DNA of 64,000 nt from an uncultured virus (IMG/VR IMGVR_UViG_3300025617_000008) (taxonomy: Duplodnaviria; Heunggongvirae; Uroviricota; Caudoviricetes): IMG/VR virus record IMGVR_UViG_3300025617_000008; one strand, written 5' to 3'. Positions 10,535 through 54,400 of this stretch are shown here, in pieces. The notes below the pieces were generated by a model, which was not told where the DNA came from, did not search any database, and saw only the letters and a program-made list of their open reading frames with translations. How positions within the stretch are numbered: position 1 is the first letter of the stretch; each line of letters begins with the position of its first letter. Both the position numbers and the translations under genes were made by a program.

Positions 10535-11064
10535 AAAGAGATTACCAAACAGGTGTAGCAGAAGATATTATATTCTTTACAGGCGTAGAAGTTGAAAAGA
10601 CTCCTGCTATTGGAAAGAAAACTTTGTTTGTAACTGGTATAAACCCTTGTGATGTTATACAAAAGCATTACGATGAAAAGCAGTGCGAACACATCTTCTT
10701 TGGTGCTAATCATAGTTTTAATCCGGGCGTCAACTTTCCAAAGGATGCTGATGCTTGGGAAGAGTGGGACGACATGATTATGTACTTTCTAAACAAAGGC
10801 ATCTTATGTAGTCTTGACTTACCTTACAATCACGCAGAAGCATTATTAGAAAGCGGAATGATTGAGCAAAATAACTTTATTCCGCAGATTCGTATTCCCC
10901 TTCCTTACATTAAACAGTATAATTATAACACCATGATTAAACTAGATGATAAGGATTTCAACGCAACCAATCCAGGTGTTTGGTGTCATAGACTTCATAA
11001 TCTAATGGACGATGAAAAGTTTACAGATTGGACAAAATATACTCTTGACAAACCAGTAGAATAA
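10531..11064 (+). CDS. Hypothetical protein in the deazaguanine cluster
   Basis: 177-aa ORF with enzyme-like motifs (KTLFVTG, HIFFGANHSF, KLDDKDF, NPGVWCH); no family recognised. Confidence 0.75.
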   Translation: MKRDYQTGVAEDIIFFTGVEVEKTPAIGKKTLFVTGINPCDVIQKHYDEKQCEHIFFGANHSFNPGVNFPKDADAWEEWDDMIMYFLNKGILCSLDLPYNHAEALLESGMIEQNNFIPQIRIPLPYIKQYNYNTMIKLDDKDFNATNPGVWCHRLHNLMDDEKFTDWTKYTLDKPVE

Positions 11065-11073
11065 TGGTATACT
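11045..11073 (+). promoter_or_regulatory. sigma70-type promoter
   Basis: TTGACA-17 nt-TATACT with a TG extended -10. Confidence 0.75.
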
Positions 11074-11076
11074 ATA

Positions 11077-11586
11077 ATGGAACAACAAGAAAGTTATCAC
11101 AACTATATGATGAGAAAAATGAAAGAAGACGATTACAAAACTTATATGAGATCAAAGGTAAATAGATCCATATGGGTTACATTCAAAAAAGAGGGAATTC
11201 ACAAATACCCTGCGGCTCTAACAGATCCGAAATTAGCAACAGGAGGTTGGGATGATGTATCGTTTCTTGGTCATCCTCACCGTCATATTTTCCATTTCCG
11301 GGTGCGCATCGAAGTGCGTCACAACGATAGAGATATCGAATTCATCCAGTTCAAAAGATGGCTCGAACGACTCTACTCCGGAGCCAATACAGGACAGGAT
11401 ACTGGAGGAAGTGCGGAACAAGGCACAACCGACAGTGAAGTGCTCCTTTTAGATTACAAATCTTGCGAAATGATCGCTGACGAATTGTATGAAAAGATTT
11501 CAGCAAAATACCCAGGCCGATTTGTTGAAATTGAAGTTGCCGAAGACGGCGAAAACGGCTGTAATATTTTTTACCCTAAACAGTGA
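11077..11586 (+). CDS. QueD/PTPS-fold paralog with LxxxHRHxF motif (DpdL-like)
   Basis: EGIH...FLGHPHRHIFHFRV, DIEF, SCEMIA and VAEDGENG are T-fold hallmarks; lacks the CxxxHGH of canonical QueD. Exact start uncertain. Confidence 0.75.
   Translation: MEQQESYHNYMMRKMKEDDYKTYMRSKVNRSIWVTFKKEGIHKYPAALTDPKLATGGWDDVSFLGHPHRHIFHFRVRIEVRHNDRDIEFIQFKRWLERLYSGANTGQDTGGSAEQGTTDSEVLLLDYKSCEMIADELYEKISAKYPGRFVEIEVAEDGENGCNIFYPKQ
11252..11452 (+). CDS. Putative lipoprotein nested in the +1 frame of the QueD-paralog
   Basis: AGGAGG at 11241-11246; signal peptide MMYRFLVILTVIFSISG-C with lipobox. Confidence 0.55.
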   Translation: MMYRFLVILTVIFSISGCASKCVTTIEISNSSSSKDGSNDSTPEPIQDRILEEVRNKAQPTVKCSF

Positions 11587-11602
11587 TAAGAGGATTGATA
11601 AA

Positions 11603-11815
11603 ATGGCAATCAAGTTTAATCGTGATGCGTATACCCGAGTCTTTAATGAATTGGATGCGTACTTGGATTTTTGCCGCTTTGAACTCCGTGAGTTCAACCC
11701 TGCACACCTTTTCAATAAGTCCAACGAAAATTGGCGGGCTTATTTGGCAAGTAAGCGGAGTAACTACCGTCCACGGAGACCAAGATATAATAACAATTAT
11801 AAAAGGAAACACTAA
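11603..11815 (+). CDS. Small hypothetical protein with basic tail
   Basis: AGAGGA RBS; MAIKFNRDAYTRVFNELDAYLDFCRFELREFNP...; stop abuts the next ATG. Confidence 0.65.
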   Translation: MAIKFNRDAYTRVFNELDAYLDFCRFELREFNPAHLFNKSNENWRAYLASKRSNYRPRRPRYNNNYKRKH

Positions 11816-12862
11816 ATGACTATCTTTATCGTTGACATTGAAGCAGTTGATACACGTTATACTAAACAGTGGAAGGAACATGTTCCTAATCTGCTACGCA
11901 ATGCTACCGGTAAAGAAGTTGTAGTAGTGAGTGGGGGAGAGACGCCTCAGGCTACGACACCTGGGGCGTTCCTCAACTTTGGCGGAACTAATGTTTATAA
12001 ATCAAAACAACTAGAGCAGATCGGTGAAATGTTCTGTAAAGGAGAAGTAAAGGATGGAGATTATTTCCTATATACGGATGCGTGGAACCCAACTGTTATC
12101 CAACTTAAATACATGGCTGAGTTATTGGGCGTTGACATTAGAATCGGTGGCTTATGGCATGCTGGTTCTTATGATCCTGCTGATTTCCTCGGCAGACTAA
12201 TTGGTGATAAACCTTGGGTACGCAATGCTGAACGTTCAATGTATGAATGTTATGATCATAACTTTTTTGCTACAGACTTCCATATTGATCTATTTGAAGA
12301 ATCATTCCGTGAAATTATGGTAGAGCATGAACCTGTAAGAACAGGCTGGCCTATGGAATATTTGCCCGACACACTGGCAATGTATACCGGAATGAAAAAG
12401 AGAGACCTTATTTTATTTCCACATAGAATTGCTCCTGAAAAACAAGTAGACATTTTTCGCGACTTAGCAGAACAACTTCCAGAGTATGAGTTCGTGATAT
12501 GCCAAGAACAACAACTTACAAAGAACGAATATCACAACTTGTTAGGTGAAGCAAAGATGGTGTTCTCAGCTAATCTACAGGAAACACTCGGTATTAGTTG
12601 GTACGAAGGCGCCCTTGTAGATGCTATTCCTATGGTACCTGATAGATTAAGTTATAGCGAAATGGCTATAGATGAATTTAAGTATCCAAGTGAATGGACT
12701 GAATCGTTTGAATCTTACAAAAAAAATAGATCTAAAGTAGTTACTGCTGTAAAAGAGTATATGGAAAATTATGAAAAGTATCTACCTAGCCTAAATAAAC
12801 AAGTAAAACAACTGAAAGATGAATTTTTCGGTTGCTCTAATATGATAAAAGTGTTAAAATAA
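11816..12862 (+). CDS. GT-B fold glycosyltransferase (GT4-like)
   Basis: FPHRIAPEKQ and ETLGISWYEG (Ex7E signature), followed by PMVPDRLSYSEM. Confidence 0.82.
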   Translation: MTIFIVDIEAVDTRYTKQWKEHVPNLLRNATGKEVVVVSGGETPQATTPGAFLNFGGTNVYKSKQLEQIGEMFCKGEVKDGDYFLYTDAWNPTVIQLKYMAELLGVDIRIGGLWHAGSYDPADFLGRLIGDKPWVRNAERSMYECYDHNFFATDFHIDLFEESFREIMVEHEPVRTGWPMEYLPDTLAMYTGMKKRDLILFPHRIAPEKQVDIFRDLAEQLPEYEFVICQEQQLTKNEYHNLLGEAKMVFSANLQETLGISWYEGALVDAIPMVPDRLSYSEMAIDEFKYPSEWTESFESYKKNRSKVVTAVKEYMENYEKYLPSLNKQVKQLKDEFFGCSNMIKVLK

Positions 12863-18119: not shown

Positions 18120-18313
18120 GTGAATATCCAAAAAAGACCGGTGACAATAGTTGGGTTATTGAAGTTAAAGAAGACGGCAAAACCAAAGAATTGTATATTG
18201 AATTTCCTCCAGGAGCTCTTGATCAAGTGGGTTGGGACATCGGTGACGATTTAATTTGGGAAGAATTAGATGATAAGCGATGGCAAATATCTAAAAAAGA
18301 ACTTGACAAATAA
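18116..18313 (+). CDS. AbrB/MazE-like DNA-binding protein
   Basis: LYIEFPPGALDQVGWDIGDDLIW swapped-hairpin pattern. Confidence 0.65.
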   Translation: MSEYPKKTGDNSWVIEVKEDGKTKELYIEFPPGALDQVGWDIGDDLIWEELDDKRWQISKKELDK

Positions 18314-18331
18314 GCACAAAAAAGGTATAAT
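18303..18331 (+). promoter_or_regulatory. Perfect sigma70 consensus promoter
   Basis: TTGACA-17 nt-TATAAT, 6 nt upstream of the queE ATG. Confidence 0.88.
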
Positions 18332-18337
18332 AGTATA

Positions 18338-19258
18338 ATGACAATAGCAACTGATAAGAAATATTACTTTAGCGAAATCTTTCACAGTATTCAAGGTGAA
18401 GGACACTATACAGGTGTGCCCACTGCGTGGATACGTTTCTTCTTGTGTAATTTACAGTGTAACGGCTTTGGACAGATCGATCCTACTAATCCTGATACTT
18501 ATGATTTGCCATTTGAGCAATTTGACACAAGCACAGTGAAACGTGTTGAAGATTTGCCTGTATGGGACAAAGGTTGCGATAGTAGTTATACTTGGTCAAA
18601 GAAGTTTAAACACCTGATGGGGCAGAAGACTGCTGTTGAACTATCACATCAAATTATTGATACAATTAGAACAGACAGTAATCCAGATGGGTTGTTTCTA
18701 CATCCTGTTACAGGACAAAGACAGCACTTCTGTGTAACAGGTGGTGAACCTCTAATGAAACACGGTCAAGAAGCATTCATTGGTATCATGACTGAATTTA
18801 AGCGTCTTGGTAATATGCCTGCTAGTGTTACATTTGAAACTAACGGTACACAAGTACTTACACAAGAGTTTAAGGACTTTTGGCACGTTGATAACGAAGT
18901 TACTAAAGATGTTGAGTTGTTCTTTAGTGTATCACCTAAGTTGTGGAGTGTGGCAGGTGAACAGGCAAAGAAAGCAATCAAGCCTGAAACTGTAGCACAG
19001 TACAGAAGTTTAAGTGATAAAGGACAACTAAAATTTGTTGTAGGCAGTGAACAAGAACAATGGGATGAGATGGAAAGTGTTATCTCACAATTTAAGGAGC
19101 ACGATGTGGATTATCCTGTATGGGTTATGCCTGTTGGTGCTAGAGAAGAAGAACAAACAGCAACAGCCGGTGCTGTGGCTAAGATGGCATTTGAACGTGG
19201 ATACAATGTAGCCGCAAGGGTACACGTATACTTGTTTGGTAATGCTATCGGAACATAA
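18338..19258 (+). CDS. queE: 7-carboxy-7-deazaguanine synthase (radical SAM)
   Basis: EIFHSIQGEG, CNLQC...GCDS, VTGGEPL, ETNGT, SVSPKL, LKFVV, RVH. Confidence 0.9.
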   Translation: MTIATDKKYYFSEIFHSIQGEGHYTGVPTAWIRFFLCNLQCNGFGQIDPTNPDTYDLPFEQFDTSTVKRVEDLPVWDKGCDSSYTWSKKFKHLMGQKTAVELSHQIIDTIRTDSNPDGLFLHPVTGQRQHFCVTGGEPLMKHGQEAFIGIMTEFKRLGNMPASVTFETNGTQVLTQEFKDFWHVDNEVTKDVELFFSVSPKLWSVAGEQAKKAIKPETVAQYRSLSDKGQLKFVVGSEQEQWDEMESVISQFKEHDVDYPVWVMPVGAREEEQTATAGAVAKMAFERGYNVAARVHVYLFGNAIGT

Positions 19259-42491: not shown

Positions 42492-45400
42492 TTATTCGGG
42501 TAGTTCTGTGCTACTATTTTGTAAGAATCTTGCTATAGCGGTAGTTGCTTCGCCTAATGAATTTCCATTAGAAACCGTTGATTCCCCTCGATCGTACCAA
42601 GTTCTGCCTGTTCTCCTAATTACGGTAATACGTGTTCCTGGTGCTACAGGATCTGTTAACCTTATATACTCATTTATGCCATCTACACTAAATTCCGCAT
42701 CGTACTGGACATCACCGTCTGGACTATATGCGGCTTTAGTTGTATCATACATTGTAAACTGATCTTTTCTTAGTCTGCGGCCACCAACAAATAGTTCAAC
42801 GTTATCGCAACGGCCATATCCTTCTGGTATATTGCTATCTGTAAATTCTCCGCCTTTTACTGGAACATATTCTAATGGTCCAATTAATAAACTAGTACCG
42901 TCTGATACAAAATCAACTTTATCTTGTTCATCGTTGTACGGTACTTGTTCAGTAAATCCAGTATCAATTACTTGTGTTCCAGCACTGTGTATTGGTCTAA
43001 TACTTGTGCCCTGGAAACCACGTCTTATATTTTGAAGTTCGTTTCCGGATTTATTTAGATACTGTATTTTCTCTCCATTAATAGTAACAATTCCTGGCTG
43101 TCCTGATCCTGGTGTTGGTAATTTAGAAGCATCGCTGAGATTAATTACAGTGTCGTAATAGTTTAAGTCAGTAGCAAGTGTTACATCAATAATTTGATAT
43201 CTAGAATAATTGTTTCTACTCAATACATCTCTATAAATTTCATAACTTAAAGGAGTATTATACACTTTATTACTATAGACTATTGTTTCGATGATATCTG
43301 ACACAACAGTTGTTTGCTTTATGTACACAGAATCTCCTGCTGGGCCAACATAAAAGTCAATATTTGGTGTTAACCTAGTTCCATTTACATAAACCCAAAC
43401 GCTAGAAATATCTGTAACACTTCTTTGAAGTTTATAGCTGTTTTGATTACCTTGATAAACATCTCTTAAGATATCTACTTCAGTGTATTGTGTAAACCAT
43501 ATAACATCAATATAATCACCATTGGTAATATTAAACAAAGAACTAAATGTAACGTTTCCGTCAATAATTTGATAGTTAATATCTGCTAGATTTTCAATTA
43601 ATACAGTATCTCCAACATTAATATCTTTTGTAATTTCAATTTCATTATCGGCACCGTTAAAAATATAATCAATAGCATTTTCTAATAGTGTACCGTTAAC
43701 AAAAACTCTAATCTGTGTAGGAATAATAGTTCCGCTACTTAATTTTGGATCATCATTTAACTTAATAACAGGTTCGCCATCATAAATTTTATATGTACTG
43801 TCGATAGTTTTAAGTAATGAACCATTATATTCAACAATGACATTAGAATTATCCGACGATCCTAATTGATCATAGAATGAAATTGGATATTCAGTTGTTC
43901 CTGGTGTAAGATTAATTCTTTCCTGATTAATTCTAACAATACTTTCTGATTGTCCGCTTTCTTGTGATAGAACAACAATTTGAATTAGGTCGCCGTTGCC
44001 TGGCGCAACACCAAACTCAACTAAAGTATTATTAGATTCGTTAACAACTCCGTTACTGTTAATAAAGCCAACTGTTGTAGGTTCTCCATTAACTGTAGCA
44101 AACACTCTGCCAGTGTCACTAAACGGAGCTCCTGTTAAGAAATAACGTGTTTGATTATCTCCTGTAAACTCTCTTACATCTAGTAGTTCAACACCGCCAA
44201 CACCTAACGAGAATACTTCAATAATTTCATTAAATCCAGGCGGATTAATAAATCTAACCAAGTTATTTTGATAATCAACTGTATAATCTACTTGATCAAC
44301 TTGTTGTTGTTTGTTAACAAACACAAGTAAACTTGCGTTTTCTAAAATGTGCTGATCAATAGCAAACGTTGAAGTATTATTGTCACCAGTGTAAATTCTT
44401 GAAAGCACAGCTGGAGCACCAAATCTGTCTGTATGGAATACTTTAATGCTCAATGTTTCTAATACTTGCCCAGGCACATTTTCTTCTGGTGCTGGAACTT
44501 GATCAGGACTAATAAATTTCTCGCCATCAATGACAATTTCTTCTGGTAAAATTCCTGTTGCTGTACTATATGGATTAGAACCAAGTAACGTTCCGCCACT
44601 TACTTCAGCGTCAATATAGTTTGCTGACTGTATATCAATAGATCCGTCACTGTCAACAGGACGGAATATTAATGTATCACCGTCAAATATTTCAATGCCT
44701 TCGTCTGGATATGGAATAGTAATAACATTAGTGCTTCCATCTCCAATAAACGTTGGCATAATAGCATTTTCGTTTGTAACCAATGACGGTGTTCCAAAGT
44801 TTGGATCATCCAATCTTGTTGTTGTAGTTTCGCCTTTCCTTCTGATATAGATGTTATATATTTTTCCGCTTTCTGGAACTTCAGGCAATACAAATTCATG
44901 TGTGCTGTCATCAGCGGCAATATAAAAATCTTTAGTATTACTTTCTGCGCTATCCCAACCTTCAGTAAACCAAGGCAACGCATCCCACCCGGCACCAATG
45001 TCAAATGTAGCACCTTGGACAATTACTCCGCCGTAATCCATACCAGTTACTAGTTGTGAGTAATCTGTTGAAATTTCACTGCCATCATCTGGAATTTCTT
45101 TGTCAATACCTAACATTCCGTCAGTTGGCTTATAATATTTGTCTATTCTATTAAGGCTGTCTAGTACTTCATCGTTCTTTTCATATACAACTTTTACTAC
45201 TGAACCTTCAGGTGCCGCAACTAACAGTGTTAAGCGTCCTTTTAGTACAGTAATATCGTTAATTACTTTTGTAAACAACGTAACGGTATAATCACTGCTG
45301 AATAGTTGTTCATCGTCAATAGTAATAACAATAGAACCTTTATCTAGTGTACTTGGATATTTTAAATCAAATGTAGTTGTTCTACCTGTTCCTGTAAATG

Positions 45401-48400
45401 TTTCTGTTTCAATAAATTTCTCAGTATCACTAAACGCCTTAAATGTTGGAGTTTTGCTATATCTGTCAAACTTAATTTTACTATTAAACATTCTAGCTTT
45501 ACTATTGCCGATTGTAGCAACAGCACTAGCACTAAATTGTGTTTGTGTACCGACTCCGCCTACAAGTTCAATAGTAGGAGTGCTTGTATATCCACTACCG
45601 CCATCAAGTAAAACAATTTTAGTAACTTTTCTATTTGAAACGTAAGCTCTAGCTTTTGCTCCAGAGCCGCCACCGCCATTAAATATTACTTGTGGTGGAG
45701 TTGAATATGTGCTACCACTATCAGTCAATGTAATAGCAGTAACTTCATATGTGTAATTGTTAAACCAATTATTCCACGGTTGTAAATCAACTTCTGAATC
45801 ACCTAATTTAACAGGATTAATTGTATTAGTAACAACATCATATTTTGGAGGTAAATCAAAATCAGACACAGTAGTATTTGTGTTATCAAGATTTAGATAC
45901 CTACTGGTATAATTTCTAATCTTTGTTCTATATGGTTTAACTTCTTCAATATATTTTTGATAAGCAGACAAGTTATCATTACGGAAATTTAATTTTTGTT
46001 CTAAGTTTCCTACATTGTGGATAGCATTTAAGAAACTTGTTTTAAATACCCAGTCCACATATAACTGTTCGCTTAATACATAATGAATATTTACAAAGAA
46101 CAGTTTATTCCAATATCCGTCAAGTTCGTCAACAAATACATTATATTTTACAGCATTTAAAATGTTTCTAAATTCTTTAGATGCACTTGTATCATACCTA
46201 TTACTATCGTATGTTTGTGTTTTGTCATAACCTACAGATTCTGTTTCTGTATTATAAAACTTGTTAATAATTTGTATAGTTCCGTTGTTTCTTCCTACAA
46301 GTCTATATTTGTTAACAATAGTAGCTGAACTATCAGAAACACGTTCTAATACTGCCCATCCACCAGAGCCATAATCATCAAGTCTTAATAACTCTCCGTC
46401 ATTAAGTGTAACTTCAGGTTCTGCGTATAAACCAGGCAATGATTGACTAATTCTTGATTCTTCTGAATAACCAATCTCCCACCAGTCTACTGTTTCCCAA
46501 TACTTAGTTGTATCAAATTCCTGTGTTGCTGTTCTATAGAACTGTTGTTCTCTAACGCTCCAAGCATAGATACTCCAGAAACCATTAACTGTACTATCAC
46601 TTTCAACTAGAACGCTGTAAGGTCTAACAATTGGTGTAGCATTTAAATATTTTTTACCTTGATTTGTAACAGTTACGCTGGTAATTCTACCAAAACTATC
46701 AATAGTTGCTTCGGCAGTTGCGCCTTCTCCATCACCTGTAATTGTAATTAACGGCGCTCTTTTATAACCAAAACCACTTTTTACAATTTCAATAGTATTA
46801 ATATGACCGTTAATAATATTAGCAATCAGTGTTGCTTCCTGAATATTAGCTGTTGTTTGAAATACTAATTCTGCTTCAGTATCAATTGTAACATCATAAA
46901 GATTTTTTACAGAACTTGGTTTTTCGTCAATTAAGTTTAGATATTCATAATCAATTTCATCGGCCAACGGAAGTGTAGCAAGAGCATCGTTAATAAATGT
47001 AATAGTTTGTTCTACTGCTACATTTCTATTAACAAAAATAGTCTGTCTTGGACGACTAGCAATTCCGTACTTGTTTTTGTCTGAGAGAGCAGGATCTGGA
47101 ATTTGATTTCCTAGTATATCACTTCCGACTAAACTGTCAATCCATTTTCTTTCTAGATCTTCGTTTGGATCATTTTTGCTTGATTCTGTTGCTAACAAAT
47201 ATTCATTGTGAATTAAATTTAAATTATCATCTGTTTTATAATATTGTATGTTAACGCTAAATTCATCTGAACTTAACAGTGTTTTAAGATTACTAATTGT
47301 AATTTTATCCTTGTCAACAATATAAGCAAACGGTACACCAGCATTCTGTGGATTTTCAATATAATCAGAAACTTGTGATGCCGCTAATGTTTTATCACTA
47401 TTAGCTTCTTGATCAAACTTGTCTTTAACCCAGAAATAATATTTTGTACTAGATATATTTCCTGTTATTGGATTTATATTTTGCTTGACACTATAAACAG
47501 TATCATCGTAAAGAGGAGTTCCTGTTATACTAGGATCATCTTTATTTGTTTTCTGAGCATAGTTACTTGGTGTTAATGTTGATTCTACCCACTGATAAAC
47601 ATCAATAGAGCTTCCTTGGGCATAACTGTTCCAATTGCCATTTCTAAATACAACATCGCCTTGTTCATAAACAAGATATTTTACTTTAGAAGTATCCCAC
47701 CAAATTTGGCCTACTTGTTTTTCGCCCCAGTGTTGGCCTTCATCTTGAGTTGTAAATTCTTCGTTCTCAGACTTACTATAAACAGCAGGATCAAAAGGTG
47801 TTTTATAATCAATATTTTGTTCTACTATTCCTAACAATTTGCCTTTGTAATAATCAATTACATCAATATCAGCAATTTTTGTATAGATATCTTTTTCGTA
47901 TGCCGCTAAGTTTTTAAGTTTAGAAATATCAACTTGAGGAAGTTGTGTTCTAATCGCTTCCCAAGGTTTAACATTTTCTTGCTTTTCAAACTTTTGAATT
48001 CTTCCAATAACAACTTCAGTAAACGCAGGATCAGTCGAAAGATACTTAGGTGAACCTACAATAATAGTGTTATTACTTGTTGCTAGTGATCTACCAAAAT
48101 CTTCATTGTTATTAAGCCCATCTTCAAATACTTCACCTAGTACCCACTTTCCTCCGTATTCATTGAATACAAATACTTTACCTGTAGTGCCCAACGGATC
48201 AGCAAATGTAGTTGTGTATCTGTCAAACTTAGTTTGATCAATATCAAATGTTGCTACATCAAATGTTTGAGCACCTTCAGCGGAAACTGCTAATGTTTTT
48301 CCGTCTGGAGAAATACTAAGATTCGAGCCGAAGCGTTCATCATAGTCATTTGTATTTGATTGTAGCTTTTGCTTAAACACATAACTATTTCCACTCCAAG

Positions 48401-51400
48401 CAAATACAAAAACCGATCCCTGATCTTTTTCGTTTTTGTCAGCGTTTGGAGCGCCAATAAACAATGTTTGTGCATCATTAGAAATTATAACATTTTCACC
48501 AAATCTATCACCTGGGTTTAAAGACGGAATAGAAGTTTTATTAATTTCTTGTATAAAGTTAAACACTTTATTTTCATTTTTCTTGTAGACAAATACGACA
48601 CCAGTTTTTGGATTACTGGTATTTTGTATCTTAACCCATTTGTTATCAATTTCAGGAGCATCGTCGATACTTGTTAAACTAGAATCGCTATCAAGCTCGT
48701 AGTATTCGTCGTTTCTTCTTACAATATCACCTTGGATGTACGTTTCGGTAGTTCTCCATACTCCTCTGTAGTTTTCAAAGTTGTTTGTATCAGCATAAGG
48801 AGCCGAAGATATTAATATATTTCCGTCTTGGCTCATTGCTGTACTTGTTCCAAACTTATCGCCAATATCTAAATTTTCAATTTCATCGTCAAAGGTTCCT
48901 TGCTCAAGCGATGACCCGTCGTTGATATAAGCATTAATGTTTGGAAGAATATTTTTGTTAATAGTATTTGTTGCTTCCCACACACCGCTAGTTGCCGGAG
49001 TTGTTACTCCATCGGATGTAAAGAATGAAGTTGCTTTGTAGTAGGAATTTTCAAACCAAACAATGCTGTTTTCAACATAACTTCTGTTAATGTTGAAAAT
49101 TCCTACAAATTCTTTATCTTGTAAAAATGTCCACTTCGTGCCATTAAATTGATATAGATAAACTCTACCTCTATTGTCTCTACTACCCGGAGCTGATATT
49201 GACATAAAGTAACTTTCATCTGTTGCTCCAAGATCAGTACCAAGAATTTTAATTTGATCGCCGACGACATATCCCGATCCTGCTACACTAATAGTAGCAC
49301 TATACGCACCGTCTTTTCTTTCAACATCAAAAATTGCTCCAGTGCCAGGATTAGAAACATCCTCTGGAGAAACATCTAAGAACGTGCCACTTCCAGGACC
49401 TGGAATACCAGCATATTCAATACCTAGTGCCGCTGTACCTGTGTAACTAAAGTTTTGTATGTTACCTTCACGCTTTGTTGGGTAAGGACCAACTTGTCCA
49501 TCATCACCAACTTGATTCAATCTAATAGTAATATCGTTTACTGGAGATTTACCGCCAACTAAATTACCAGGTATAACAATAATTGTTCCAGAAGTGTACT
49601 TAATTAAGTTGCCGCTATTGTCTTTTTCGTCCCACGCAACCCAGTTACCTGTTCCGTATGTTGGCGAAGTTGGATTAGCATCGTACTGAACATTAAACGG
49701 AAAGCCTGATACTCTTTCCCAATAATCTGGTGATGTGTTAGGGAATAATGTTTGATAAGCTGAATACGCTGTTCCATCTGTACCAGGTATTACATTTGTA
49801 ACAGTCTTTAATACATTCCAATACTGTGAACTGTTAGCAGGATATTTTATAACATCTCCTTTGTCGTATGTATCTGTAGCCGACCATACTCCTTTATCAA
49901 TCCCTGTATCTTTAATACAAGCATAAAAGAATCCGGCATATTGAACAATGCTACGTGATTTATAGCCGTCGCCGTCTTGTACCGGTACAGCAGGACTTAC
50001 AGTAGTATCTTGTCTCAGTCTTACATTATAAACATCTTTATTTTTAGTAACTGTAAATAGAGCCAGTTCTGATACCGAGCCGCTTACAAGTCCAGTGATG
50101 TTATTAAACGTGTCTGCTCCTAAAATTGTGCCATTTTCGTCAACTTGTTTTACTTCAATAATAATATCGTTATTTGAAGTTCCTGTTGCTGGTTGGCCAC
50201 CAACCCTAGTACCTTGAATATATAACTTATCTCCTACAGCATATCCTGTACCGCCTGATCTTACTTCAATGTCATAGTTAGGTGTTCCTGAAGATCTTGT
50301 TACATCAAATGTAGCATTTTGACCATCACTGCTTATATCAAAGCCACTTACATTTTCAAATACTTCATCGTTTAAACCACTTGCTCCGGCGGCTTTTACA
50401 GACACAATGCCTCCGGCGTTATCAATTTCATTTACAGTTAATGTTACATCGCCGCTTGTGCCTTCAATGCCTTCAAGTTTACCAATAGTGATAGAAGAAC
50501 CAAAAAGTTCTCCGTGACCTTGTCTAGGACTTACTAAACTATTTTTAAGACTCCATTGACCATTTGAATATTCGTAAATATCAACTGCGCCTTGTTTTGT
50601 ATACCCCTTATTTGCTAAAAATAATTCTGCTCCAAGTGGGTTTGCTTCTAGCAATTCCACAGGTTGCCAATCTTCGCTTCCTAAGTCAATCGAGCTTCCA
50701 TCGCCGAAAATTCTTTTAGTTGCTTTGTATAGCTTTCCAGCGTATAATACTGTGTCGCCTGGTTCGTAATCTGCTGTTGGGTTAAATTGTTCTTGATAGT
50801 TACTAGGAACTTTACTTGCTTTAGGCGAACCTACAACTAGCCATCTTCCATCGTCACTAACAGTTAGAACTTCGGCATAAGATCCAAGATAAGATGGTTG
50901 AAGTCCATTTTTAGGTGTTAAAATCTGTAAAGGAATAAGTCCTGTTTCTCCATCGGAATAAACAATAACAGCCGAATCTCTAACTACATCACCGCCTTTA
51001 ACTGCGGCTCCCGGGTTACCAACAATAGTTTGATTAAGTTGAGGAGCAAATGTTACAGCACTACCTGTTCCGGTTGGAAACGCAATACCGTATTCTGAAA
51101 TTTGTGTTACGCTATACTGCTTATTTCTTTGAACAACTTCCCAGCCATTTGTTTCTTCGTTGTTATCAACAAATACTTTTGATCCTACTGGAAGTTTAGC
51201 AAAGCCTTTGTCTACTAACTCTGAATAAGACGCTACCCTAACACTTTCAAAGTAACTTACATAGCTAAATGTGCTCTCATCAATACTAGGTGCTTCTTTA
51301 AAACCGGCAATAGCAATAATAATTTTTTTAGGTTCAACTGCGGCAATTTGATAAAACCCAGTTAACCCGCTAATATTATTAATACCGACAATTTGGCCTA

Positions 51401-54400
51401 CTTTAAAATTATGTACTTTATTGGTTATTAATTCAATTCTGTCAACATCTGGAGTTTCAAGGTTGTAAATTAAAACATTACTAATAACATATCTATAAAC
51501 ATTCCAAGAACCAGGCTCAAATGTCGTCCACACATTATCGTTATTTTTTATATCTTCTATCGAAACAGTATTATCTAGGAAATCAGTTAGATCATTTTTA
51601 ATCCATTCAACGTCACTGTTAAAGATATATCCTGCTGAATTTTCAGCAACTGGATATACTTTTTGCGGTAAGCTAAAACTGGTATTGTTAAGTTGGTAAT
51701 CAGAATCATTTAACAAAATATAATTTTGATATTCATCTGAGTTAACTGTTGTACCATTAAACAAAATTGGTTGCGGATTAAGTTTAAAACTGTTGGCTTG
51801 TAAATCAAACTCTGCTTCGTCAATTTGATCTGTTCCGCCGACAGATCCCATTCTGAATGCCCATTCTTCGTCTAATACAATCTTGTCATCATCAACTGTG
51901 CTTACTTTATCAAACACTTTCTTGATAGCGTTGTTTGTGCCTTTTTCTCTACTAAACCCTTGGAATAGTTTAAATTGTGCTACATCATCTTCAGCAATTT
52001 CTTGTAGGTAATCTCTTTGTTGAAAACCAACAGTATGCTTTGCTAATGTTTTTTGTGTAGAATTTATTCCGTCAACTGATAATTCATAATAATCTTCAAT
52101 TTGATTAACTCTGAAGTCAAAGTTAGGAACCAATCCACTAGTTGGATTACTATCAAGTATAGACCAGTTTTCTTCCTTAAACGTTTCTTCGCCTTTTTGG
52201 AATACTTTACTTACATAATTGTACTGTTTGTATTGTACAATATCTCCAAGTTTATAATCTTGATACTGTTTCCACGATTGGATATTAACGTTATCAAATA
52301 TAAATCCAGGACTTGTATAATCGCCGTCCCAGTCAACAGTCCTAAACCCTTTACTCTTAATTCTCTCTTGTCTGTATCCAGGACCTTTATCAAATATTAC
52401 ATCATTGAAAACTGTCTTATCATCAAAGATAGTTACGTGTTCTTTTTGAACATAATTAATTTCAGCGAAATAAATGCCTTCGTTATTTTCTTCTGGAGAT
52501 ATTAATAATTCATTTTCGCCTCTAAAAATATCAATATCTTCAGCATCAATTTTTGTACCATCGGCTCTTAAAATATTATAATCATAAAAACTATCTAAAA
52601 TATTATCTGCTACAGAGCCAATGTTTTGAAATTTAAGTAATGTGGCTCCCGGGCTTAATGAAAGTATACTGCCTTCTGCCCAGTTATGTGTTGTCCAGAA
52701 TAAAAATTCTTTAACTGCTGTTTCCCAGTTTTGTACTACTCCTAAATCTTTGTTAAAGACATCAAATACCATGCCCTCATTTTCTAAGAATTTTCCGTAC
52801 CCTAGTAAGAAATCTACAACACTTTGTACTGTTTCAATTACTGTATCATAATTAAATGTAACTGCTGTTGTTTTATCAAACCTAGATCGTTTAATTGCCT
52901 TGGCGCCGCCAACTGTTGGTACGTTTTCTATTGATTTCCACTTACTCGAATCAAACGTAGATTCTGCTTCGTGTGCTAAAATTGATCTATAAAATTTATT
53001 TTGATATTTGATTAAGGTTCCTTTAATATAAAAAGAACCAGGATTCCATTCTACAAATGCTTCACTAACTCCGCCAACATCTAATACAGGATCATTTTGT
53101 TGAGAAAAGAAATTATAATATTTGAAAATAGCATTTAGTTGATCGTATCCACTAATTCTGAATCCGCCATTTACTTTTTCAATTAGCACTCCGCTATATC
53201 TTGTTGTAAACTGAGGTGAACTAGTGTTAAAGAAAACTTGATAGTTTTCCTTAGGAAGAAATACACCTGTTTGTGTACTTTGTGGATTTTTACTATCTAA
53301 AAGATATTGCTGTTGTTCTTTATCAATAAATCCTTTGATTCTAGTGCTTAACTTAATATCAAGGTTACTATACAAGTTATACAAATTTTCTTTTGTCTTG
53401 GCGTTAGACTTTAGATAGTTAATAACAAATGCCAATAAACCATCTGGTCTAGTATTACTAGCAAGACTACTAATAATATCTGAATTATTAATAAACGTAT
53501 CGGTATTTTTGCTAACAAACTGATTTACTTTATTTTTCTTAATAAATGTTCTATCAAGATTGATACTAATAGTTTCAAAAGGTCTAAGTAAACAAGCGGC
53601 AATAATTAATGAGTAAGGGTAAACACTACTACGTCTCCATGCGTGTTCACTAGGTGAAATGTCACCAAATTTAAATTTATCTTGATAGTCTGTGCTAAAG
53701 TCGATAAACACATCGCTTGCTAACGGAGATAACAGTCCACCGTCGGCGTCAACAGGCAAGTAATCTAAAAGTTGCTCTCTTTTATACCTAGCATAAGTTC
53801 CTTTTCTTTCACCATCTTTAATAATACCGTCACGTAGATCTTCCCAAAGTATTAAGTTATTTGATGTATATGGTGCGGCACCGTATTCGTCTTCCCACCA
53901 ATCTGGCTTTGACGTAAATCCTAGCATTTCCCATGGAGTTAGATGCGGTGTGTTAGTATCAAACAAATATTGATAAACGCCTCTCCAAAATCTTGGCATC
54001 TGTTGTTCACGCTTAACATCTAATGTTTTATTAAATGTCCATGTAAACTGATTATCAGCATCGTAGTATAAATTTTCGTATAAATCAATGCCTTTAATTA
54101 AGGGCCATCTTAAAAATTCTAATTCTAAAATATTATCAACTTGTTCTTTTGTAAATACTCCGCTATTATCATAACCGCCAAACAAGTTATCAATGTCTAA
54201 TATATCTGTGTTGTATTTTTGTTTGATATTATTATAGATTCTTTTTTCAAATTCTAATAATAAATCATCTCTGAAGTCGCCATAAGCAATAGTAATACTT
54301 CCATCATGGCCTCTAATAACTTTCTTAGGTCTAGCAAAAGAAGTATCAGTATAAATTTCTGGAATCCAAGACTTGTATAATCCTAAACTAGATGGTGTTT

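Follow-up and report, generated by a model that had tools for sequence, protein, structure and literature searches.

A lipoprotein gene lying wholly inside another gene is a familiar arrangement in phage lambda, where Rz1 is nested in Rz, read in the +1 frame from its own start and carrying extra cysteine residues, and both embedded and overlapped spanin pairs are known. In phiX174, a younger and lineage-restricted frame (gene E) lies over an older and widespread one (gene D), with a short, biased and partly disordered product and with reduced synonymous rates in the older frame. Here we describe a locus that resembles both in these respects. It lies in a 64,000-nucleotide stretch (hereafter the window, meaning the whole stretch that was analysed) of the IMG/VR virus record IMGVR_UViG_3300025617_000008, from an uncultured virus of the Caudoviricetes, and consists of a predicted 66-aa lipoprotein precursor read in the +1 frame of dpdL, the gene of a QueD paralogue. 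We think it likely that positions 11252–11452 are a real overprinted, dual-coding lipoprotein gene, for which a path of expression and export can be proposed and which may resemble the phage lipoprotein Llp in its working.

DpdL is a QueD paralogue proposed as a 7-carboxy-7-deazaguanine (CDG) decarboxylase; it was described from phages phiST and ACP17, the QueD motif CxxxHGH is replaced in it by LxxxHRHxF, and the authors state that they obtained no product from dpdL of these two phages in E. coli (Cui et al., NAR 2023, PMC10516641). Llp of phage T5 is described as a small lipoprotein that resides in the inner leaflet of the outer membrane, blocks FhuA and is made shortly after infection, and a C11–C58 disulfide is reported to join its N- and C-termini (bioRxiv 10.64898/2026.03.26.714494). 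Rtp45 is presented as an LptD-binding exclusion lipoprotein, also with a disulfide (PMC12685063). The features of the locus in the window that are needed for comparison with these systems are as follows.

11077..11586, + strand: host gene dpdL, QueD paralogue of 169 aa, extended at the N-terminus and with an inserted loop
11266..11292, + strand: DpdL signature LxxxHRHxF (L64–F72); the same bases give the hydrophobic core of the predicted signal peptide in the +1 frame
11377..11439, + strand: host loop insert S101–E121, disordered; its +1 frame gives the C-terminal part of the putative lipoprotein
11241..11246, + strand: Shine–Dalgarno sequence AGGAGG, 5 nt 5′ of ATG 11252, read from the sequence
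11252..11452, + strand: candidate overprinted +1-frame gene for a 66-aa lipoprotein precursor, stop codon counted in the coordinates
11252..11302, + strand: predicted signal peptide, residues 1–17 (MM, Y-R n-region, FLVILTVIFS h-region, I-S-G)
11294..11305, + strand: lipobox I-S-G-C; Cys18 (codon 11303–05) is the predicted lipidated residue
11315..11317, + strand: Cys22 (mature position +5), predicted disulfide partner of Cys64
11387–11422, + strand: predicted helix, peptide residues 46–57 (structure model, low confidence)
11441..11443, + strand: Cys64, third from last residue, predicted to form a disulfide with Cys22

Translation of 11252..11452, in the +1 frame of the host open reading frame (ORF) 11077..11586, gives the peptide MMYRFLVILTVIFSISGCASKCVTTIEISNSSSSKDGSNDSTPEPIQDRILEEVRNKAQPTVKCSF. 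The start codon is directly followed by a second ATG at 11255, and downstream of the lipobox the peptide has a Ser-rich stretch and a stretch, IQDRILEEVRNK, for which a helix was predicted by the structure model at low confidence. The earlier, sequence-only reading of this DNA had pointed to a perfect Shine–Dalgarno sequence, a basic residue, a hydrophobic core, a lipobox, a Ser-rich linker, a helix and two further Cys residues, and all of these were found again, the helix with the reservation just given. To examine the whole window, a lipoprotein rule of the PROSITE PS51257 type was coded for this analysis, which asks for an N-terminal Met, Lys or Arg in the n-region, an uncharged hydrophobic core and a lipobox [LVI..][ASTVI..][GAS]C with its Cys at 15–35. 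Across six frames of 64 kb, ORF 11252..11452 was the sole ATG-started ORF of at least 40 aa that passed this rule. The nested ORF exceeds chance expectation: when the host gene was resampled synonymously 20,000 times, the 66 codons of the nested frame remained open in 2.9% of the samples, and a lipobox-like motif together with an open start arose in 0.015%.

Family scans with the window peptide gave no Pfam and no PHROG match, and a PDB sequence search with it returned nothing significant (best E 0.088, an SLT-domain protein). A search of the ESM Atlas reached a best score of 0.89 with unnamed clusters, which serve as leads only. When 40 distinct lipobox-bearing peptides from relatives were scanned against Pfam, the only contacts were below threshold: seven peptides touched LptM_cons (best E 0.05) and three touched O_Spanin_T7 (best E 0.015). 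We read these contacts as a generic likeness of lipoprotein signals.

The host gene is DpdL, as its motif, its modelled fold and the nature of its structural matches together identify a QueD paralogue; the sequence-only reading had named it as such. Its motif residues are L64-GHP-HRH-I-F72, of which L64, H68, R69, H70 and F72 are invariant in 46 orthologs. By tblastn the gene was matched in 28 phage records, including Acidovorax phage ACP17 (7e-32) and Cellulophaga phage phiST (5e-8), and the protein matched phrog_17812 with E=9e-32 and, faintly, the QueD-like phrog_2389 with E=0.007; there was no Pfam match, and nothing significant in the PDB by sequence (best E 0.32). The AlphaFold model of the host protein, with a mean predicted local distance difference test score (pLDDT) of 79.6, shows the T-fold order beta-beta-alpha-alpha-beta-beta, and its best Foldseek matches are all QueD/PTPS (E ~2e-3, probability 1.0, TM 0.65–0.74 on the target). 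With DpdL of phiST and ACP17 it shares the signature LxxxHRHxF, the T-fold, the tblastn similarity and its grouping with FolE and a QueE-like gene, both of which lie within the window; dpdL would thereby be part of a 7-deazaguanine DNA-modification cluster of this phage that presumably has no QueC. The marine clade differs from the named phages in adding a ~27-aa N-terminal helix and a variable loop, and in the orthologs of Phosso and PA5oct the +1 frame is closed. The loop, which had been noted earlier as a low-complexity insert where the +1 frame reads as ordered protein, is indeed an insert (residues 101–121) relative to the ~115-aa homologs in named phages, and host residues 103–119 have pLDDT values below 50 in the model, that is, they form a disordered loop. 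A run of six A lies at ~11186–11191 in the window.

Conservation of the +1 frame was assessed in a set of 80 loci with 58–88% identity, taken from >600 orthologs by an IMG/VR scan with the host protein alone and therefore unbiased for the +1 frame. In 24 of them there is a start, the frame runs open for 40 codons or more, and a lipobox is present. In 15 the +1 frame was open for at least 40 codons and had no lipobox, reading FVFVLKY where others have ISGCASKC; in 40 it stopped within 2–28 codons, and one had no start. Scanning again with the peptide as query, a choice that favours positives, yielded 31 loci, each of them nested in a dpdL ortholog. Of these sequences 22 were new, and 20 of the 22 had the lipoprotein frame, divergent ‘DEY’ forms with 61–69% host identity among them. 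Host identity among the lipobox-bearing sequences falls to 54%, and they are scattered over the tree; a parsimony count puts the changes of lipobox state at 10, on a tree that comes from a short alignment and is not trusted in detail. A free-standing homolog was not found among 5.8 billion proteins searched with a profile of the 40 peptides, as de novo overprinting predicts. That search returned four JGI singletons (P0001–P0004), each mixing the dpdL frame and the +1 frame of the locus, which are probably frameshifted or mis-called versions of it, through indel errors or as natural frameshift variants.

The open frames without a lipobox include a nested subgroup (L014, L019, L030–L032, L034–L036, L040–L043, L045 and L047) with a +1 frame of 44–48 codons, MMYHSLVFHIVIFSTFVFVLKYF..., homologous to 11252–11400; sister sequences of this subgroup have stops after 2–5 codons. 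From their sequences, these frames look like a decaying remnant after loss, and they might conceivably still encode a small membrane peptide.

The middle base of each +1 codon is the third base of a host codon, so that every change that is silent in the host alters the nested protein. Synonymous choice in dpdL was therefore compared between 23 distinct lipobox-bearing sequences of the unbiased set and 50 other distinct sequences. Across the overlap the host frame uses codons that are rare in the genes of the window, in which CGG and CGC account for 0.7% and 5.2% of Arg codons, and the shares of GTG, CTC and TCG among Val, Leu and Ser codons are 6.2%, 1.2% and 5.9%, respectively; the GC-rich run CGG GTG CGC at the lipobox, which the sequence-only reading had singled out as unusual for this genome, is thus rare by count. 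It is this use of rare synonymous codons by the host gene that makes the overprinting of core and lipobox workable. Host Ser is TCG in 20 of 21 lipobox-bearing sequences, which gives Arg4 of the nested peptide, and at the lipobox the host has no codons but TTC, CGG/AGG, GTG and CGN, of which the last three give Gly17-Cys18. At two of the Cys sites Val is GTG in 23/23 lipobox-bearing sequences, as against 6/49 and 11/50 of the others (11/50 being the Cys22 site), and GTG also encodes Cys64; host Ile is ATC in 23/23. At the same conserved amino acids the 50 other sequences have the common codons GTT, GTA, CGT and ATT.

The same contrast appears when whole regions are compared. Over amino-acid-conserved columns, subtracting the codon entropy of the others from that of the lipobox-bearing sequences gives −0.49 within the overlap as against −0.06 elsewhere (one-sided Mann–Whitney U test, p=3e-4); p remains 3e-4 without the start and lipobox columns and is 0.005 when stop-risk columns are removed as well. 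Nei–Gojobori synonymous differences (pS) at host residues 60–84 are 0.458 in lipobox-bearing sequences versus 0.758 in the others, and 0.291 versus 0.715 at the C-terminal end of the overlap; in the flanks the groups are alike (0.61–0.66 versus 0.60–0.72). In sliding windows the ratio of synonymous variation (lipobox-bearing/others) is 0.43–0.72 between nt 11239 and 11440, ~0.9–1.3 5′ of the overlap and in the first 3′ windows, and 0.74–0.91 towards the 3′ end of the gene. The dip is confined to the overlap and to the lipobox-bearing lineages and is absent in the 55 others. These data show that the +1 frame is conserved and selected where the lipobox is present, and they support the view that the overlap would be under selection in both frames.

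Comparison of the 40 peptides showed further signatures at the protein level. Cys18 is invariant (40/40), Arg4, Leu6, Leu9, Ser16 and Gly17 are each at least 90% conserved, and 37 of the 40 have Arg or Lys in the n-region. The number of non-lipid Cys residues is even in every peptide (two in 36, none in three, four in one) despite six patterns of position, namely 5 with C-3; 24 with 40; 5, 21, 24 and 40; 5 with 24; 24 with 32; and none. Such even parity would be expected of an oxidised periplasmic protein that has intramolecular disulfides, and in the window peptide the disulfide would join Cys+5 to Cys(C-3). A single Cys is found in 11 of 16 open frames without a lipobox. Variable third positions of the host appear in the peptide linker as S/N, I/T and F/S swaps. 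The inter-helix loop of the host has a median of 10 residues (range 7–22) in 23 lipobox-bearing sequences, compared with 5 in 11 open sequences without a lipobox and 4 in 24 short ones (Mann–Whitney U test, p=4e-10, not corrected for phylogeny); 15 non-lipobox sequences that did not fit the pattern, with loops short by eye, were dropped from this comparison. Judged by these lengths, the freest segment of the enzyme has apparently grown longer to accommodate the C-terminal part of the nested protein. In a co-occurring relative (runs X1 and X2), 49 bases are replaced by 13 at 11375–11425, which leaves the loop 36 nt (12 codons) shorter and in-frame in both frames.

Several observations weigh against a second gene, and a number of them are what would be seen if the ORF were a by-product of the T-rich third positions of an AT-rich genome, which would give a hydrophobic +1 frame and a lipobox inherited without selection, an explanation that we nevertheless consider improbable. 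Hydrophobic +1 peptides also occur in orthologs without a lipobox, for example MMYHSLVFHIVIFSTFVFVLKY..., and since 55 of the 80 orthologs have no intact lipoprotein frame and one has no start, the gene is dispensable and lineage-restricted; it has probably been lost repeatedly. Three of the 40 peptides have neither Lys nor Arg in the n-region, and the AlphaFold2 model of the window peptide is poor (pLDDT 55.8). The lipobox group is defined by the trait itself, which dropping the start, lipobox and stop-risk columns controls in part, and the selection tests are only partly corrected for phylogeny. In a simplified OLGenie-like calculation, dNN/dNS for the +1 frame was 0.67, with a bootstrap interval of 0.46–1.11 that includes 1; as controls, the region outside the overlap gave 0.87, the +2 frame 1.46 and the group without a lipobox 1.17. 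Within the loop, the +1, host and +2 frames of the long-loop subgroup had identities of 0.61, 0.58 and 0.52, respectively; the first two values are too close, and the idea that the +1 frame is better conserved there than the host frame was rejected.

The Shine–Dalgarno sequence belongs with these points. Its median duplex energy at the nested start is −3.8 in lipobox-bearing sequences versus −3.4 in the others, many having only GGTGA or GGCGA, and the closest relative (L082, 97.6% identical) has GGCGGC and no AGGAGG. The Shine–Dalgarno sequence was rejected as a conserved feature of the gene. The sequence-only reading had named the start, lipobox Cys, open +1 frame, Shine–Dalgarno sequence and suppressed synonymous variation as what should be kept in orthologs, and a broken frame or a missing Shine–Dalgarno sequence or Cys in close ones as what would speak for a by-product. 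On the points that matter most the gene passes, with reservations: all but the Shine–Dalgarno sequence are kept in 24 of the 80 orthologs and in 20 further loci, while the frame is broken or has no lipobox in 55, and the Shine–Dalgarno sequence is already missing in L082.

The by-product explanation nevertheless leaves much unaccounted for. Outside the overlap synonymous sites are near saturation (the flank pS values above), yet the codons for Arg4, Gly17, Cys18 and both other Cys residues are fixed; per resampled lineage, the probability of an open frame is 0.029 and that of a lipobox-like motif 0.00015. The Cys count is always even and the loop is longer where the frame is intact, and loss of the lipobox is accompanied by reversion to the common codons GTT, GTA, CGT and ATT. 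The claim of the earlier reading that this is a real dual-coding lipoprotein gene is therefore supported, with frame, start, lipobox Cys and synonymous suppression retained in the loci counted above.

Signals for expression were also examined, and promoters were called by consensus match together with conservation across orthologs.

11045..11073, + strand: candidate sigma70-like promoter (TTGACA, 17-nt spacer, TATACT, TG before the −10; 11/12), ending 3 nt before the host ATG
18303–18331, + strand: candidate promoter near the QueE-like gene (12/12), ending 6 nt before the QueE-like ATG
18338–19258, + strand: QueE-like gene; FolE lies further upstream

In most orthologs a promoter of the TTGACA-N17-TATAMT type, scoring at least 11/12, stands 0–9 nt upstream of the host ATG (usually 6–7 nt) or overlaps it, and the final codons (L-D-K) of the gene before dpdL contain its −35 element. 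A promoter placed so close to the ATG suggests that the early dpdL mRNA has little or no leader and, taken with the QueE-like gene, that leaderless early mRNAs may be used for genes of the deazaguanine pathway. Apart from the dpdL promoter, the window has just three sites that reach 11/12, one of them the site at the QueE-like gene. Duplex energies of −4 or lower are found at ~69% of 45 gene starts in the window, and the value at the nested start, −11.0, is the strongest of 46 starts scored. Identical contigs occur in marine metatranscriptomes from four studies, one (X1) covering 10856–12082 and three (X2, X3 and X4) covering parts, which attests presence in RNA libraries only.

On this basis the following path may be proposed. 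dpdL would be transcribed early, as a nearly leaderless mRNA, from the conserved sigma70-like promoter a few bases before its ATG, and ribosomes would also start on this mRNA at ATG 11252/11255 in the +1 frame, probably helped in this phage by AGGAGG. The product would be a 66-aa prolipoprotein with its hydrophobic core over LxxxHRHxF and its lipobox over the host residues F-R-V-R. From the general biology of lipoproteins we infer export by Sec, lipidation by Lgt at Cys18 and cleavage by LspA after ISG. Asp at +2 is the sorting rule of E. coli lipoproteins; the peptide has no Asp there, which points to sorting to the outer membrane. The mature 49-aa peptide would be a Ser-rich tether closed by the Cys+5 to Cys(C-3) disulfide, its variable C-terminal part being supplied by the disordered inter-helix loop of the host enzyme, stretched for this purpose.

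A role in lysis was also considered, i.e. that the nested protein is an Rz1-like outer-membrane spanin (o-spanin) or a lysis accessory with a partner elsewhere. As a small nested lipoprotein with extra Cys it is formally like lambda Rz1, and three of the 40 peptides touch O_Spanin_T7, all below threshold as given above. A comparison that bears on this comes from a complete relative (G004; 328,292 bp with terminal repeats), in which the nested ORF lies at 98823..99020 on the − strand and a canonical lysis cassette (L121 8542–9716, −) lies 30 kb from it.

G004 lysis cassette, − strand: endolysin, 150 aa, lysozyme-type (phrog_7, 1e-15)
G004 lysis cassette, − strand: inner-membrane spanin (i-spanin), 166 aa, Rz-like (phrog_739, 1e-5)
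G004 lysis cassette, − strand: o-spanin, a 134-aa lipoprotein overlapping the 3′ end of the i-spanin gene (phrog_812 ‘Rz-like spanin’, 7.7e-13)

Since G004 carries the nested ORF as well as its own endolysin and spanin genes, the orphan-spanin role that the sequence-only reading had offered as one possibility is unlikely. Where lambda Rz1 lies in Rz, the nested gene lies neither in a lysis cassette nor inside an i-spanin gene; its host is a cytoplasmic, soluble T-fold enzyme of DNA modification, its neighbours are replication and modification genes, and these together with the promoter type point to early rather than late expression. We therefore regard an o-spanin or accessory lysis function as very improbable. 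The G004 o-spanin had no match in the relatives G001, G002 and G005, which at 13–75% completeness says nothing on absence. G004 also has two larger free-standing lipoprotein candidates, at 177745–178515 and 197058–199418.

Least probable of all, and in our view barely tenable, is that synonymous change is held back by a need of the RNA or DNA itself, be it mRNA structure, an internal signal or a binding site, and not by a second protein: suppressed synonymous variation alone names no cause and the region lies ~175 nt into an apparently leaderless mRNA, but the Cys is invariant in a lipobox context, the Cys count is even despite shifting positions, the core stays hydrophobic though its residues change, the linker swaps are among S, N and T, indels keep the frame open, and changes that are synonymous in both frames do occur (CGG/AGG, and CTA/TTA at the stop).

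Taking 11252–11452 as a real lipoprotein gene, we then asked what its product may do. The sequence-only reading had suggested superinfection exclusion or receptor blocking, and the most attractive analogy is with Llp and Rtp45: an early, disulfide-locked lipoprotein that would bind an envelope protein from the periplasmic side and so block superinfection or the loss of progeny. We put this forward tentatively, as a possibility that falls somewhat short of being probable, and as a likeness to Llp in working rather than membership in its family. The nested protein is of the same size class as Llp (PDB 7QJF, 8A60) and Rtp45, with a mature length of 31–51 aa compared with ~62 aa for soluble Llp. 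It also has in common with Llp a predicted lipid anchor, a disulfide between N-region and C-terminus (here the proposed Cys+5 to Cys(C-3)) and, to judge by its early-type promoter, early synthesis. It differs in being nested in an enzyme gene, whereas Llp and Rtp45 are free-standing. Two points speak against the analogy. When the 40-peptide profile was compared with all PDB sequences, no Llp or Rtp45 chain appeared at E<=10, nor any similarity to a solved lipoprotein, and for a comparison of folds the model of the peptide is too poor; and T5 llp presumably adjoins the gene of the receptor-binding protein, which the nested gene does not.

The genomic setting is that of a large phage. The window has a T4-type polymerase and baseplate genes and is part of a marine jumbo myophage; its polymerase is 44–48% identical to those of Phosso, Atu_ph07 and Asteriusvirus-like coliphages (350–490 kb). 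The nearest relative record is 47.6 kb long and estimated to be 13% complete. On the + strand between 5365 and 13593 the order of genes is polymerase, 245-aa, 504-aa, 58-aa, 177-aa, dpdL, 70-aa basic, 348-aa and FolE, and the 504-aa neighbour had no match in family scans. Phosso has the same order, annotated as DNA polymerase, glycosylase, hypothetical (the dpdL ortholog), glycosyltransferase and folE-like. A single ORF of 4939 aa lies at 42492–57311 on the − strand, among tail-fibre and baseplate genes.

Nested spanin lipoproteins and overprinting in small viruses are already known. Full-text searches of the literature, judged by titles and abstracts, returned no gene inside dpdL and, for jumbo phages, no enzyme gene that carries an overprinted lipoprotein. 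As gene callers discard fully nested ORFs, the gene is invisible in all annotations of these phages. Unlike phiX174 E, it specifies a lipoprotein precursor whose signal peptide reuses the codons of a catalytic motif, and it does so in genomes of >300 kb, in which saving of space is no argument; it would thus be a natural example of gene birth by overprinting for which compaction is no reason. Its mechanism is legible, in that T-rich third positions pre-adapt the +1 frame to hydrophobicity and a few rare codons add the Arg, the Gly-Cys lipobox and the Cys pair. The invariant motif of the enzyme keeps the signal peptide stable, the free host loop offers an evolvable end, and the lineages without a lipobox are built-in controls. 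One practical consequence is that the second gene would be destroyed if dpdL were recoded synonymously for heterologous expression.

The fullest version of this account is that the lipoprotein was born de novo over the catalytic-motif codons of dpdL, the gene of a DNA-hypermodification enzyme, has long been kept in a large clade of marine jumbo phages, and is a convergent, Llp-like outer-membrane protein that shuts the phage's own receptor. We hold this to be doubtful as a whole, and less probable than the likeness to Llp alone. If it is true, one nearly leaderless early transcript would give both protection of DNA and exclusion of superinfection, and the loop of the enzyme would have been lengthened to give the new protein a variable binding end. 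As an exclusion factor, the nested lipoprotein would be a pointer to the receptor of an abundant group of uncultured marine phages.

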